A stretch of DNA of 64,000 nucleotides from a virus (IMGVR_UViG_3300028797_000116:61691-125690), one strand, 5' to 3'; positions 1,584-64,000 are shown, counted from the stretch's first letter. Notes: generated by a model from the sequence alone, not told the origin. Translations and numbers: made by a program.

Positions 1584-2156
1584 ATGTTAATTGATAACAA
1601 AGAAATTATAAAAATAACTAATAGGGATAATGGACGTATAGGATATACTATCCCTGATTTAAATATAACTCGTGTATTCGAGGCTTATGAAACAAAAGAG
1701 GTAACTGCGGAAGAAATTAGAAAATTATCTTATATATCTGGAGGACAAGTTCTTTTAAAAGATTATTTAGTAATAAATAATGAAGAATTAATAAAAGAAA
1801 TTCTTCATTCAGTAGAGCCTGAATACTTTTATACAGAACAAGATATAAAAGATTTATTAATAAATGGTTCTTTAGATGCTTTAAAAGATTGTTTAGATTA
1901 TGCTCCAGTAGGAACTATAGATTTACTTAAAAAATTAGCGGTAGAGCTACCTTTAAATGATGTAGCTAAAAGAAAAGCTATTTTAGATATGACTGGATTT
2001 AATGTAGATACTGCAATTATGATTGAAGAAGAAACTAAAGAAAAAATGGAAGAAAGTAATAAAGTTCGTAGATTAAATGAAAAAGAAGCGGTTGCCGCTG
2101 CCCCTACAGGAAGAAGAACTACAGTACCGGTAGATAAATATAAAGTAGTAAAATAA
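1584..2156 (+). CDS. Conserved phage protein (head module)
   Basis: 190-aa ORF with AAGGAG RBS. Confidence 0.6.
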   Translation: MLIDNKEIIKITNRDNGRIGYTIPDLNITRVFEAYETKEVTAEEIRKLSYISGGQVLLKDYLVINNEELIKEILHSVEPEYFYTEQDIKDLLINGSLDALKDCLDYAPVGTIDLLKKLAVELPLNDVAKRKAILDMTGFNVDTAIMIEEETKEKMEESNKVRRLNEKEAVAAAPTGRRTTVPVDKYKVVK

Positions 2157-2174
2157 AAATAATGGAGGTGTAAT

Positions 2175-2741
2175 ATGACAGAAATAACAACTACACCTTT
2201 TTCTATTGTTTATGATAGTTTTTTATCAAAAATAACAGATGATATGTATATGGAGTTAACTGAATTAGATACTTTTAGATTATTAGAAAATTTATTAAAA
2301 ACTGCTATGCAAAAATTTGAGTTTCCTCGTATAGATATTTTTGATTATGAAGAAAGCTATGTAGATGATGTAGATACTTATGAAGGTGTTGAAAGTAATA
2401 ATGAAGAAGTGCCTGCAATTATTTATGCTGGCGGATATTTTAATAATTTGCTAACAGCAGAAGAAATTAATATTCTTTCAACATATATGATAGTAGAATG
2501 ATTAGGTCAACAATTAGCTAGTGTTGAAAATACTAGAATGAAATATAGCGGAAGTGATTTTAAATTTACTTCTCAAGCTAATCATATGTCTAAAATATTA
2601 GCTCTTAAAAAAGATTATGAAAGAGAAGGTTTCCATCTTCAAAGATTATATAAGAGAAGAATTAAAGATGAAAATGGAATTATGCGCTCTACTTTTAATA
2701 GTATTATGGAAAAATCCCCTAGTAGTAGGGAGGTTTTATAA
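2175..2741 (+). CDS. Putative head-tail adaptor (code 4, 188 aa)
   Basis: ORFs 2175-2501 and 2538-2741 are in frame, joined by one TGA (IVE-W-LGQQL); GGAGG RBS. Confidence 0.6.
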
Positions 2742-3067
2742 TGAAAATAGAAACTGGAGCGGAAATAAAAAAAGAAGCTGTAATAGATAATATAAAAAAA
2801 ATAATTAATCAAACATATAAATTATTACCGAATAGAGAAGAAGCTATTGATTGAGAAACGCCATTAAAAACAATAATAGAAGAATTATCAGGAATGGATA
2901 TTTTATTAAATGAATATCATAGTATCTTATTTCCTTTGCTTTGTAAAATGCAAGGATTATTTTCTTTTCAAAATGATGAAGATTATTTAGATTATAGAAG
3001 ATGCATTTTTGAATGTTTAAATTTGCTTACTTCATTAAAGGAGGCGATTGCGACATGTCAGGATTAG
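2741..3067 (+). CDS. Conserved phage protein (code 4, 108 aa), absent from ORF track
   Basis: TAATG overlap with previous gene; MKIETGAEIK...YKLLPNREEAID-W-ETPL...YRRCIFECLNLL; ends TAG. Confidence 0.65.
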
Positions 3068-4008
3068 AAGATATGAGTACTCGTCTTCAATATAGTGGCG
3101 GAAATGCTCAAATAAATAGAATGAATCAAGATAAGCTAAAGAGTTTAAAAAAAGCTTTATTATATTCTTATCAAAGTGCTACCGCAATATTGGTAGATGG
3201 AAGAGAATTTAGATGTTTAATTAATCCAGACCATTTAAAAACATCCTTTGATGATAAAATTATATCAATTCCTTTTGAAGATATTTGTTTAAATAAAAAA
3301 GATAAAAAAATAGAATCAATTGGAATAAAAGCAGGAGATGTGTTTACTTGGAAAGAAAATAATTCAGATTGGTTAGTATTTTTACAAAGATTAGAAGAAA
3401 CAGCTTATTTTAGAGCTGAAATTCGTAGATGTAGATATACTGTTTTAATAAATAATATTGAATATAAATGTTATGCAGCAAGATCTGAAGTAAATGAAAT
3501 AGATTGAAAAAAACAAAAAGATATAGTTTGAACTGAACCAGATTATACATTAAAAATGTATATTACTAAAGATGATAAAACAGAAGCATTTTTCCATAGA
3601 TATAGTATTATTAAAGTTAATGGAGAACCATGAGAAGTTCAATCTATTGATAGTATAAATGCGGAAGGTATTATTATTGTATATTTAAAAGAATGATTTA
3701 AAAATACAATAGCAGAAGAAAAAGAAAAAGAAGATGCGGAAAAGGTAGATAATGTTCAACCAATCTCAAATGAAGGATTTATATCAGGTCCTGCCGCATT
3801 ATATCCATATGATACTGCTATTTATAAAATTAATAATATAGATAATGGAAGTTGAATTATAAGTAGTAAAAAAGTAAAAATATTAGAACAAAATAATCTT
3901 GAAATAAAAATTGAAATTATTTCAGGACGTAGTGGTGAATTTGAGTTAATATATAAAAGAGATAATGAAGATGACATTAAATATAATGTTAAAATTCAAT
4001 CATTATAG
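3055..4008 (+). CDS. Putative head-closure/neck protein (code 4, 317 aa)
   Basis: AAGGAGG RBS before ATG 3055; open through several TGA to TAG 4006-4008. Confidence 0.55.
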
Positions 4009-4021
4009 AAGGAGTTAAAAT

Positions 4022-4615
4022 ATGAAAAGAGATACTCGTAGTACAATTCCATTAGAATCATCTTTTTTAAGTTTTGAAAAAGATGTTGAAATTATTTTAA
4101 AAGCTCTTTTTGTTGAGAGCTTCCCACATAGTGATAGTTTAAAAAGACTTTTAGTTATTAATACAAAAGATTGTTTAGATAATACTGAAAGTCAAGTTTA
4201 TAAAAGAAAAATTGCGGAAATGACTTTAGCTAAACTAATTCAAGAAGGATATATAAAATTAAATCCAAAAATTAGAATGCCTGAACATGAAGAAGTAAAA
4301 GCTTATATTATTATTTCTTCAGATAATTATACTCCAAATAAAGAAAATCCTTATTATAGAGATTGTACATTGACTTTTGATATTCTATGCCATCTTGACT
4401 ATTGAGATATCGGTGATTATAGACAAAGACCTATTAAAATAGCAGGTTATATAGATGGATTATTAAACAATGCAAAATTAACTGGAATTGGAGAATTAAA
4501 TTTTTTAGGATGTAATGAATTAGTAATAAGTGAAGATTTAGCTGGATATTCTCTTTCTTATAGAGCAATTCATGGTAATGATGATCGTTTACCGCCAAAA
4601 GAAAATAATGATTAA
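4022..4615 (+). CDS. Putative tail terminator/completion protein (code 4, 197 aa)
   Basis: One TGA (FDILCHLDY-W-DIGDYRQRP); position upstream of the tail tube gene. Confidence 0.55.
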
Positions 4616-62475: not shown

Positions 62476-62498
62476 AAAAAAAGAGAGGTTGCCCTCCC
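62476..62498 (-). terminator. Rho-independent terminator
   Basis: GGGAGG-gcaa-CCTCTC + T7 on - strand. Confidence 0.75.
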
Positions 62499-62513
62499 GA
62501 TTTTATATCTAGA

Positions 62514-62777
62514 TTATTCTTCGTCAGTTGCTTCTGGATCGAATGCAAGTCCAGCTTCTGTTAACTTAATGAATTTAACAGCTTTATGTCCTTCTTCAGT
62601 TTCGATTTCAGCTGGGATTCTTTCCATAAGACCTTTCTTTTGGAATGCAGCAGTTACAATTCCATTTACTTGTTTAACATTTAATCCAGTTCCTTCAGCT
62701 ATATCAGCAGCTGTAATATTTGAATCATTATTTGATTTTACAAAATCATAAACTAATTTACTATTTGGTTTTAACAT
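62514..62777 (-). CDS. Winged-helix DNA-binding protein
   Basis: TAADIAEGTGLNVKQVNGIV...KKGL...KLTEAG; biased codons; own promoter and terminator. Confidence 0.7.
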   Translation of the reverse strand: MLKPNSKLVYDFVKSNNDSNITAADIAEGTGLNVKQVNGIVTAAFQKKGLMERIPAEIETEEGHKAVKFIKLTEAGLAFDPEATDEE

Positions 62778-62828
62778 TTTCTTTCTCTCCTTTTATTTCT
62801 TATATTTTGTTCTTTTTTTAACATATAT

Positions 62829-62857
62829 ATTATAACAAAAATTTTTAAACTTGTCAA
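62829..62857 (-). promoter_or_regulatory. sigmaA promoter
   Basis: TTGACA-17 nt-TATAAT with extended TGn. Confidence 0.8.
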
Positions 62858-62931
62858 AAATTTTTATTATTTTAAATATATTGAAAGAATTTATATTTAT
62901 TTCTTTCATATATATTATACTAAAAATTTTT

Positions 62932-64000
62932 TTATAAATCAAACATATCTATGAAAGTGTCTTCATTAATGATTTGCTTACCTAGCTCTTTCGCTTTATT
63001 GTTTTTAGCACTAGTACTATTAATATCGTTATTAATTAAATAGTCTATATTTGCGGAAACCGCTCCTACAACTTTACCACCTAGACTCGCAATAAAACTA
63101 GATAACTCATCTCTATTTTTCCATTTTTTAATTTTTCCTGTTATACAAAAAGTAAGTCCTTCTAATTTTTGTTCTTTTTTTTCTTCTATTTTATTATTTA
63201 TAGTTAAGAAATTTTCTACAATATAATCTAATTCATCATAATTATAATTTTTTAATGATTTATTCATTTCATATCCGAAGCCATCTATTTCTGAAAAATC
63301 AAAAGTCCCGACTGCTTCTCTAAAATCTTCGTATGTATTGAAGATACCTGCGATTTGTCTGGCCACTGTTCTACCAATAAGTGGAATGCCTGCTGCAGCG
63401 ATAACGGATTCGAGGTCAGTATTACAGCCTTCTCTGATGGATGTGATAATATTCATAACAGACTTTTCTCCAAAACCTGCTTTCTTCTTCCAATCCTCTG
63501 CATGCGCATCAAGTGTGAATATATCTTTGATTCCATTAACCCATCCCCAATCTATTAATTTTTCTATTGTAGCTTTTGATATACCTTTTATATTTAAACC
63601 TTTTTTACTAAAAAAGTGTTCTATTCTATTTAATAATTTTCCTTCACAGGCTGGGTTACCGCAATATAAAGTAATTATTCCTTCATTATCTTTTAATTCA
63701 GTTGGACTTCCGCATATTGGACAGTCATCACATCTAAATTCTGAAATAGTTAAATCTTTTTTATCTGCTTTTGAAACTTGAGGAATTATTTGATTTGCTT
63801 TGTATATCCATAATTTCTCACCTTTATAAGCGTGTCCTAAGGTATCTAACATAACACTTACATTAAATAAATTGGCTCTTGATACATCTGTTCCATCTAT
63901 ATTAATAGTATCAAATATAGCAACTGGAGTTAATACACCAGTTCTCCCCATAGTCCATTCTATATTTTGAAGGGTAGTTTCATATTCTTCATCATAAAAC
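62932..64000 (-). CDS. ligA: NAD-dependent DNA ligase, C-terminal part (5' end outside window)
   Basis: GRTGVLTPVA OB fold, IIPQV, CPIC...C...C Zn finger, HhH repeats, BRCT (FCITG...GGKV). Confidence 0.92.
   Translation of the reverse strand, partial: FYDEEYETTLQNIEWTMGRTGVLTPVAIFDTINIDGTDVSRANLFNVSVMLDTLGHAYKGEKLWIYKANQIIPQVSKADKKDLTISEFRCDDCPICGSPTELKDNEGIITLYCGNPACEGKLLNRIEHFFSKKGLNIKGISKATIEKLIDWGWVNGIKDIFTLDAHAEDWKKKAGFGEKSVMNIITSIREGCNTDLESVIAAAGIPLIGRTVARQIAGIFNTYEDFREAVGTFDFSEIDGFGYEMNKSLKNYNYDELDYIVENFLTINNKIEEKKEQKLEGLTFCITGKIKKWKNRDELSSFIASLGGKVVGAVSANIDYLINNDINSTSAKNNKAKELGKQIINEDTFIDMFDL

Follow-up and report, generated by a model that had tools for sequence, protein, structure and literature searches.

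The viral DNA IMGVR_UViG_3300028797_000116:61691-125690, a stretch of 64,000 nucleotides (the window), raises the question of why an AT-rich genome should carry, inside its genes, many exact copies of an inverted repeat with G/C-only arms, GCGG-N3-CCGC (the dyad). The window makes up the right-hand half of a contig of 125,690 bp (G000; ~84% complete) and has a G+C content of 27%; coordinates marked G000 are those of the contig, all others those of the window, and related genomes bear further G numbers. Selection at the DNA level on the exact dyad, with a peak at a spacing of three, is supported by protein-preserving null models and by the recurrence of the excess in eight related genomes, which bears out the inference of an earlier note on this DNA. 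The reading put forward here, tentatively, is that GCGG-N3-CCGC is a positively selected recognition word on double-stranded phage DNA, likeliest for a two-fold symmetric (dimeric) reader that would have GCGG as its half-site.

Dyad sites and their coding context

Open reading frames (ORFs) of at least 100 amino acids (aa) cover 74% of the window with the standard code and 96% once TGA is taken as sense (code 4), and TGA codons are matched to Trp in relatives at 180 of ~250 positions. The window was therefore read under code 4, which brings out long genes, whose products have 2626 aa, 1733 aa and, for DNA polymerase III alpha, 1304 aa.

The window holds 12 exact dyads and the contig 18. All twelve starts listed in the earlier note (Table 1) were found to be correct, and a recount returned the same four sites with spacer TTG/CAA and the same rarer spacings (N0 at 41334, N4 at 45698, N5 at 36310 and 58536). 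Shuffles preserving dinucleotides give 0.01 dyads against the 12 present, in agreement with the near-absence expected by chance. Every window site lies inside a code-4 ORF, the genes being on both strands and in both arms of the genome, and two types of frame are used: nine sites are read as GCG-GNN-NCC-GCN (Ala-x-x-Ala) and three as xGC-GGN-NNC-CGC (x-Gly-x-Arg). The codons involved are rare ones, as had been claimed, GCG and GCC making up 9.9% and 5.4% of Ala codons, TCC 2.7% of Ser, ACC 3.5% of Thr and CGC 4.4% of Arg. In the contig 17 of the 18 sites are genic.

Excess over null models

GCGG/CCGC is the most over-represented tetramer of the window (210 copies against 44 under a zero-order model). 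Using synonymous shuffles within genes over the whole contig (n=1000), the check that had been proposed, 142 GCGG and 126 CCGC copies are expected against 274 and 226 in the contig, and the dyad appears 1.7 +/- 0.9 times (maximum 5) against 18. The peak at k=3 survives correction for word frequency and peptide content. A Markov chain Monte Carlo null for the window, in which the proteins and the codon usage of each gene are fixed and the counts of both words, GCGG and CCGC, stay within 3, predicts 1.64 dyads (maximum 5) against 12.

When spacings of 0-30 were scanned in the window, N3 gave 12 pairs and every other spacing at most 2; the everted arrangement, CCGC-Nk-GCGG, is found 0 or 1 times per spacing, and at N3 not at all. 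Realisation was defined as the dyads present divided by all places where the peptide sequence permits the arrangement. The number of such places in G000 is similar across arrangements (27-50), but the inverted N3 form is realised at 17/49 of them (35%), N4 at 4/49, N0 at 3/50 and the everted forms at 0-1. In five genomes the inverted N3 form is realised at 17/49, 9/52, 26/67, 8/36 and 5/39 places; other spacings and the everted order reach 0-8% in these genomes, the exceptions being N4 (up to 15%) and, in G005 only, N0 (19%).

The arms are equally exact. Among all 256 tetramers tested as an N3 inverted repeat in the contig, GCGG alone is strongly enriched (18 against 0.49 expected; p ~3e-22). 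Of the core CGG-N3-CCG the contig has 29 copies where 1.1 would be expected, and the everted core is absent. Across five genomes there are 65 perfect genic sites and no more than 14 of each one-mismatch variant, despite a composition that favours A/T variants. The spacer is free in 75 sites from six genomes save for C/G beside the arms, largely from Ala codons, and the only flanking preferences at these sites are T at -1 and A at +1 (43% each). Enrichment on the sense strand is found in each codable frame for both words (GCGG z = 13.7; CCGC z = 19.5), while the remaining 14 G/C-only tetramers have z values of 4.7 or less. Since both GCGG and CCGC are enriched on the sense strand, the selected molecule would be duplex DNA and not mRNA or peptide.

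There is almost no chance that the dyads are an accident or an artefact of codon usage or of Ala-x-x-Ala peptides. Nine of the twelve sites do share one frame, but three use the other, the nulls fall short by 7-fold to 1000-fold, and the excess recurs at non-homologous positions in eight genomes.

Stable mini-hairpins in single-stranded DNA were one of the mechanisms offered earlier; the alternative considered here is a functional mini-hairpin in single-stranded DNA or mRNA, with a 4-bp G/C stem and a 3-nt loop. The best loop sizes for such a structure, N3 and N4, are the two most realised spacings, and the copy at G000 46106 forms the centre of an 11-bp stem resembling a terminator, the sole contig copy in a long stem of this kind. 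The predicted folding energies of the dyad (RNA -5.2, DNA -3.8 kcal/mol) are, however, matched or bettered by the everted order and other G/C stems (RNA -4.8 to -6.1, DNA -3.4 to -4.2 kcal/mol), none of which is enriched; G-U-compatible sense-strand variants are not clearly preferred to A-C variants (37 against 27); and no hairpin of this kind could be formed by the NotI word GCGGCCGC, which is enriched in G005 and G006. A hairpin function is very unlikely. Intrinsic terminators do not fit, all 12 window sites being inside ORFs.

Distribution among related phages

In the major capsid protein, identity is 48% with phAss-1, an uncultured gut phage, and 37% with large Enterococcus phages (PMC10607447). 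A capsid protein 53-92% identical to that of the window is encoded at 31 IMG/VR loci, in most of which GCGG is the top tetramer, and near-identical DNA was met only in assembled contigs of bovine gut metagenomes and in no RNA data set. Throughout the phage clade GCGG is 3-6 times too frequent on both strands.

The number of N3 dyads expected in each record was derived from the word counts of that genome. Eight uncultured genomes show a 7-37x excess: G000 (18 observed, 0.49 expected), G001 (10, 0.29), G002 (5, 0.25), G003 (6, 0.27), G004 (8, 0.33), G005 (28, 1.44), G007 (6, 0.90) and G010 (6, 0.27). In G006 (2 observed, 1.64 expected) and G009 (0, 1.19) the dyad stands at ~1x or less, yet the word itself is in 3.4x and 3.6x excess. 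The everted form is at chance level in all ten records, and no dyad excess is present in phAss-1 (44% G+C), Enterococcus phage H1, Thomasclavelia phage TR-TP1 or phiCD211. Since G006 and G009 keep the word without the dyad, the two can be uncoupled, and the reading of the dyad, with its geometry, can evolve within the clade. A link to stop-codon recoding was ruled out, since the dyad is in excess in G005 and G004 as well and, by ORF coverage, the first (and probably the second) uses the standard code.

G009 (IMGVR_UViG_3300003155_000119; L101-L106) seems to avoid the dyad: its 739 GCGG/CCGC words form two inverted pairs at spacings 0-9 against ~12 expected. Other words vary within the clade as well. 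GCGGCCGC has 20 copies in G005 (L046-L052) and 11 in G006 (L071-L077), the genomes having 32-36% G+C, and GCGC departs from expectation in opposite directions (0.3x in G007, L107-L113; 4.1x in G002, L060-L066; 2.9x in G009).

The clade-wide excess of the word, independent of frame and present on both strands, would also be expected if something that reads the word on one strand, such as the phage primase starting primers at CCGC(A), produced the dyads as a mere by-product, both strands needing many words and few peptide contexts tolerating G/C-rich codons. The flank preference TGCGG/CCGCA resembles a primase site with a cryptic nucleotide, and the DnaB-like helicase and PHROG-47 primase genes adjoin. 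Against this, the null that keeps the word counts gives 1.6 dyads instead of 12; independent words would lead to ~4% realisation while 35-48% is observed for N3; the everted and the N0/N6 arrangements, equally codable, go unused in G000; and G009 has its 739 words and zero dyads. We consider a by-product quite improbable.

Phage and co-binned bacterial DNA

Contigs of related phages occur in metagenome bins with the labels Bacilli, Clostridia, Lachnospiraceae and Prevotella. One Bacilli bin of 1.3 Mb has 11 dyads, every one of them on its 52-kb phage contig; a second, of 2.1 Mb, has two, again confined to the phage contig (125 kb); and a 1.2-Mb Clostridia bin has none. GCGG stands at 0.4-2.1x on sampled bacterial contigs of the two Bacilli bins (25% G+C, standard code) and at 4.7x on the phage contigs. 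The dyad is met once per 5-25 kb in dyad-rich phages and not at all in ~4 Mb of co-binned bacterial DNA. Binning is no proof of host identity, but to the extent that it can tell, word and dyad alike are properties of the phage rather than of the cell.

These data bear on the back-to-back Chi-like sites suggested earlier. In such a bidirectional element a helicase-nuclease, either AddAB/RecBCD of the host or a RecD-like, RecJ or Mre11-like enzyme of the phage, would read single-strand GCGG, and a head-to-head pair would halt degradation from both sides. The Chi of Staphylococcus aureus, GAAGCGG, has a GCGG core. So has that of Bacillus subtilis, AGCGG (PMC3321194, PMC4824097). Copies of the word, in excess in either orientation, come about every 250 bp in the phage, and RecJ-like, RecD-like superfamily 1 (SF1) helicase and Mre11-like proteins are encoded in the window. 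Chi biology, on the other hand, has no need for an exact head-to-head partner at N3, yet only N3 (and partly N4) is realised and the everted order, equally codable, is never used. The base 5' of GCGG is T in 99 of the 210 window copies (47%) and A in only 37 (18%), the AT-rich co-binned bacterial contigs have no excess of GCGG, and G006 and G009 retain the word and not the dyad. The Chi-like alternative is accordingly unlikely, and identity with a known Firmicute Chi (AGCGG or GAAGCGG) was ruled out, the 4-nt core alone being shared.

Gain and turnover of sites

Homologues align without gaps across the dyads, which rules out an inserted 12-bp element. The dyads are products of point substitution, synonymous and in some cases nonsynonymous (Ser to Ala, Ile to Thr). 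At site 47981 of DnaE (the DNA polymerase III alpha) all relatives share the peptide RGYR but use TAT with CGT or AGA, so this dyad was made by synonymous changes only. At the second DnaE site, 48996, three relatives have Ile (ATC, in GCG GCA ATC GCA) where Thr (ACC) is found here, and a fourth, G003, has its own dyad with spacer AAA. At site 9003 three relatives (~80% nucleotide identity) all have GCA TCT GCC GC; their agreement indicates that the G000 lineage gained the dyad by a synonymous change plus a replacement of Ser by Ala. Dyads with other spacers have arisen convergently at the same codons in G003 (at 48996) and in G004 (at 37066).

G001, the nearest complete genome, has no more than 4 of 15 dyads in common with G000, and other genomes have 0-2. 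Independent retention of the two GCGG halves would leave ~0.04 shared with G001. Positional retention overall is 8/63, against ~10% in an all-windows control, with synonymous sites near saturation. The maintained quantity thus appears to be the number of sites and not the individual sites.

A spacing-4 site, TATTTTAGR-GCGGAAATCCGC-AGATGT, lies ~2 kb downstream of the capsid gene in the peptide Y-F-R-A-E-I-R-R-C (the spacer is AACT in L012). The site is conserved at this one coding position in at least eight relatives (L001, L004, L006, L008-L010, L012, L023), a stability that contrasts with the rapid turnover of the N3 dyads.

Fast turnover, and a positional conservation no better than the control, would suit a non-adaptive drive in which a context-specific repair or mutation bias creates word and palindrome without function, either through a methyltransferase with very-short-patch-type repair or through template switching at quasi-palindromes. 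A drive by methyltransferase and very-short-patch repair has been debated for the cyanobacterial HIP1 word. Nonsynonymous changes accompany gains, and the enriched words look like restriction-modification sites and vary by lineage, as with GCGC in G002 and G007 and GCGGCCGC in G005 and G006. However, profile searches of the ~84% complete contig gave no PF00145 or PF01555 match, and no C5 or N4/N6 methyltransferase and no Vsr; the bias is missing from the co-binned bacterial contigs; T-containing precursor variants are the commonest one-off forms and are not depleted; a hairpin-based switch would equally favour the everted order and other G/C stems; and the dyads shared with G001 exceed independent retention of two words. 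Such a drive is improbable.

Candidate readers and proposed role

The dyad sites do not behave like local regulatory operators: they are at random places in genes of all classes and are quickly replaced. The dimeric protein site fits best among the three mechanisms of the earlier note, the mini-hairpins and back-to-back Chi-like sites being disfavoured. The Chi-like, repair-drive, primase by-product and hairpin alternatives each fit in part, but they do not account for the spacing, the orientation, the choice of stem or the bacterial contigs of the bins. A symmetric reader of duplex DNA is favoured by the exactness at eight positions, the fixed spacing and head-to-head arrangement, the lack of dependence on frame or strand, and the confinement to phage DNA.

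A two-fold symmetric, sequence-specific reader, probably phage-encoded, would bind or act on GCGG-N3-CCGC. Selection would act on the number of dyads per genome (5-28) and not on their location, and the dyad would be a density-dependent tag marking phage DNA for a genome-wide process such as replication, packaging, protection or compaction. It could serve as a tag because AT-rich bacterial DNA has next to no copies of the 11-mer. A more specific version, possible though doubtful, makes the dyad a mark of phage 'self', by which a symmetric reader encoded by the phage would distinguish phage DNA from the AT-rich host chromosome and direct a genome-wide step such as packaging, the start of replication or protection from nucleases (the phage's own or those of the host). 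The geometry of the reader would then have evolved within the clade, with N3 in most members, N0 in G005 and G006, and avoidance in G009.

The proteins that might act as reader were screened by phyletic profiling of all G000 proteins against eight dyad-rich and four dyad-poor genomes. The candidate of the earlier note, an 87-aa protein, is indeed predicted to have a winged-helix fold (predicted local distance difference test score, pLDDT, 88.6; matches of MepR/MarR type, template modelling score ~0.7), but nothing ties it specifically to the dyads, the protein being present also in dyad-poor G006 and in phAss-1. A winged-helix family of ~120 aa has three paralogues in G000 and 2-4 copies per clade genome; its predicted fold is like those of ArsR/SmtB, Fur and MarR proteins (pLDDT 88.7), with an N-terminal helical region. 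A tblastn search first suggested that this family was restricted to dyad-rich genomes. It was dropped as a dyad-specific reader after profile searches detected members in G006, G009 and Enterococcus phage H1 and, marginally, in phAss-1 (E 1e-4). Its tree does not separate a dyad-specific paralogue. Other profile matches were unconvincing, namely g2 (a 109-aa predicted winged-helix protein, G000 1794-2123, also in Enterococcus phage H1), g13 (coiled-coil) and ClpP-like proteins. Judging from predicted folds, several winged-helix proteins of the contig may be plausible readers.

Two known types of site were ruled out. Type IIA topoisomerases cut with a 4-bp stagger, so that the symmetry axis lies between base pairs; the N3 dyad is centred on a base pair, which excludes a cleavage site of the phage gyrase, and gyrase genes are also found in dyad-poor G006. 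Sites of parS or centromere type are excluded by the lack of a ParB_N match in the contig and by random, unclustered spacing.

Several observations weigh against a dimeric, phage-encoded reader. No gene among the profiled G000 proteins has a phyletic pattern that tracks the dyads, and the winged-helix families extend to dyad-poor members. Regular spacing along the genome was ruled out (coefficient of variation ~1), and random spacing offers a structural role no architectural periodicity. The level of positional retention fits non-adaptive replenishment too. In G005 the N0, N3 and N4 forms are all raised, which a single rigid dimer would not predict, and the bins are unproven as representatives of the hosts.

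Selected intragenic DNA words such as Chi, uptake sequences and HIP1 expose machines that read whole genomes. Here rare codons and altered residues are the price that a phage clade pays for an exact palindrome of 11 bp, one absent from its likely hosts, and its dyad-rich, dyad-free and dyad-avoiding members amount to a natural comparative experiment. Should the reader be found, it would define a new phage-specific system of genome recognition, explain a strong constraint on the coding sequences of widespread rumen and gut phages, and make the dyad a metagenome tag for these phages and perhaps for their host or defence context.

Gene content and further observations

The structural genes are on the + strand (1-34292). 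The genes of replication and nucleotide metabolism are on the - strand and specify a RuvC-like resolvase, glycosyltransferases, serine hydroxymethyltransferase (SHMT), dUTPase, NrdD/NrdG, DnaE, a RecD-like helicase, a RecJ-like exonuclease, primase, a DnaB-like helicase, an AAA_24 ATPase and an NAD-dependent ligase. SHMT and dUTPase lie beside a four-gene sugar-transferase block, which could hint at nucleotide or DNA modification. An HNH/homing-endonuclease-like gene adjoins the 5' end of dnaE.

ARAGORN found 24 tRNA genes at G000 19327-27774, outside the window; none has the anticodon TCA and Trp is represented only by Trp-CCA. TGA is read as Trp throughout, yet a TGA decoder is not evident in the ~84% complete contig. 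The DnaE gene has six in-frame TGA codons, while its orthologues in G002-G004 have no in-frame stop (vs L032-L034), so the sense use of TGA varies between close relatives. Outside the window, too, genes for GyrA- and GyrB-like subunits have near them a second NAD-dependent ligase gene, which is complete, and genes for RNase H and an RNA ligase. A small-gene region (G000 ~49680-50830), likewise outside, has repeated G/C-rich intergenic elements, GCGGGCCGC and GCGGCCCGCCGC, followed by 'gtaaagtaa'-like motifs; these are possibly regulatory repeats or small RNAs.

Table 1. Dyads, related sites and genes referred to in the text (window coordinates unless marked G000)
Feature	Position	Strand and gene	Coding sequence or peptide	Relatives and remarks
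Dyad GCGGTTGCCGC	2088..2098	+, gene 1584-2156, structural-arm protein of unknown function	GCG GTT GCC GCT, A-V-A-A	unrelated residues in relatives
Dyad GCGGCTGCCGC	9003..9013	+, gene 8151-16031 (2626 aa)	A-A-A-A	three relatives GCATCTGCCGC (A-S-A-A)
Dyad GCGGGTTCCGC	9741..9751	+, gene 8151-16031	A-G-S-A	
Dyad GCGGCAACCGC	15288..15298	+, gene 8151-16031	A-A-T-A	
Dyad GCGGATGCCGC	26329..26339	+, gene 25981-27621	A-D-A-A	G001 GCACCTGCCGC, right half alone
Dyad GCGGTCGCCGC	26944..26954	+, gene 25981-27621	A-V-A-A	
Dyad, coding strand GCGGCAACCGC	34574..34584	-, RuvC-like resolvase gene 34330-34854	A-A-T-A	dyad in G001; left half alone in G003
Dyad	37066..37076	-, GT2 glycosyltransferase gene 36505-37299	GGC GGC AGC CGC, G-G-S-R	independent dyad GGC GGA GGC CGC in G004
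Dyad	42820..42830	-, radical-SAM (NrdG-like) gene 42751-43251	R-G-S-R	dyad also in G001, G002
Dyad	47981..47991	-, DNA polymerase III alpha gene 45569-49483	CGC GGT TAC CGC, R-G-Y-R	
Dyad	48996..49006	-, DNA polymerase III alpha gene 45569-49483	GCG GCA ACC GCA, A-A-T-A	
Dyad	63053..63063	-, NAD-dependent DNA ligase gene 62932-63999	A-V-S-A	A-V-S-P or S-V-S-K in relatives, without either half-site
Core-only variant CCGGCTGCCGC	39917..39927			CGG-N3-CCG core, one flank off
Further core-only variants	45891-45901, 51413-51423, 62074-62084			
Spacing-4 relative GCGGAATCCCGC	45698..45709	DNA polymerase III alpha gene		N4 is the clade's second most realised spacing
87-aa winged-helix protein	62514-62777	-		candidate reader of the earlier note
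~120-aa winged-helix family, paralogue	G000 40960-41325	+		
~120-aa winged-helix family, paralogue	G000 46215-46604	-		
~120-aa winged-helix family, paralogue	G000 47194-47583	-		
109-aa winged-helix protein g2				contig-encoded; predicted fold
PHROG-47 primase	55472-56563			
SHMT and dUTPase	38326-40023			
HNH/homing-endonuclease-like gene	49551-50447			PHROG 374/559
GyrA-like (C-terminal beta-propeller repeats) and GyrB-like subunits	G000 6629-8962 and 9743-11650			
Second NAD-dependent ligase	G000 4408-6357			complete
RNase H	G000 11695-12237			
RNA ligase	G000 14559-15761			

Comparison with known systems

No published description of the dyad motif was found, nor, among the papers searched, any that contains GCGGNNNCCGC. 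Type II restriction-modification systems use interrupted palindromes, for example CAC-N3-GTG and GCC-N5-GGC, and phages normally avoid such sites. The dyad resembles these in its exact positions, its free spacer of fixed length, its two-fold symmetry and a word that changes by lineage; it differs in being accumulated and not avoided (except possibly in G009), and no cognate enzyme was found, nor any methyltransferase in the contig.

The Chi of the Firmicute AddAB enzymes (AGCGG in B. subtilis; PMC3321194, PMC4824097) has the GCGG core, and many copies in both orientations would guard linear DNA from end-processing nucleases. Chi is asymmetric, acts singly and is plentiful in the host chromosome, whereas here the 5' base is T and not A, the signal is the exact N3 pairing and the bacterial contigs have no excess of the word.

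The closest published analogues are the cyanobacterial HIP1 and the dyads of Cluster O mycobacteriophages, and the phage dyad differs from both in architecture, genomic setting and turnover. HIP1 (GCGATCGC) is an uninterrupted G/C-rich 8-mer palindrome, over-represented tens to hundreds of times in cyanobacterial chromosomes, whose sites are positionally conserved between genomes and co-occur with cognate orphan methyltransferases (PMC5861425; PMC4390886). Like the dyad it is a short palindrome created through codon choice in coding sequence, far above codon-preserving expectation, and is not explained as a peptide, RNA or promoter motif; HIP1 likewise has no known reader. The dyad differs in being interrupted (4-3-4), built on a separately enriched tetramer, confined to phage and fast in turnover, and a methyltransferase was not found in the contig.

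Cluster O mycobacteriophages, with GC-rich actinobacterial hosts, carry more than 30 dispersed copies of the 17-bp TGTTCGG-NNN-CCGAACA, some of them genic, for which the authors predict a dimeric DNA-binding protein and a role other than that of a promoter (PMC4351075). Its arms are 7 bp long and its sites mostly at conserved positions, 14 of 34 being in short intergenic gaps (PMC4351075). Both motifs are inverted repeats with a free 3-bp spacer dispersed in a phage genome, and the central CGG-N3-CCG coincides. Identity with the 7-3-7 motif was ruled out, the flanks beyond GCGG/CCGC being nearly uninformative; here the arms are of 4 bp, 17 of 18 sites are genic, positions are mostly lineage-specific and the half-sites are independently enriched.

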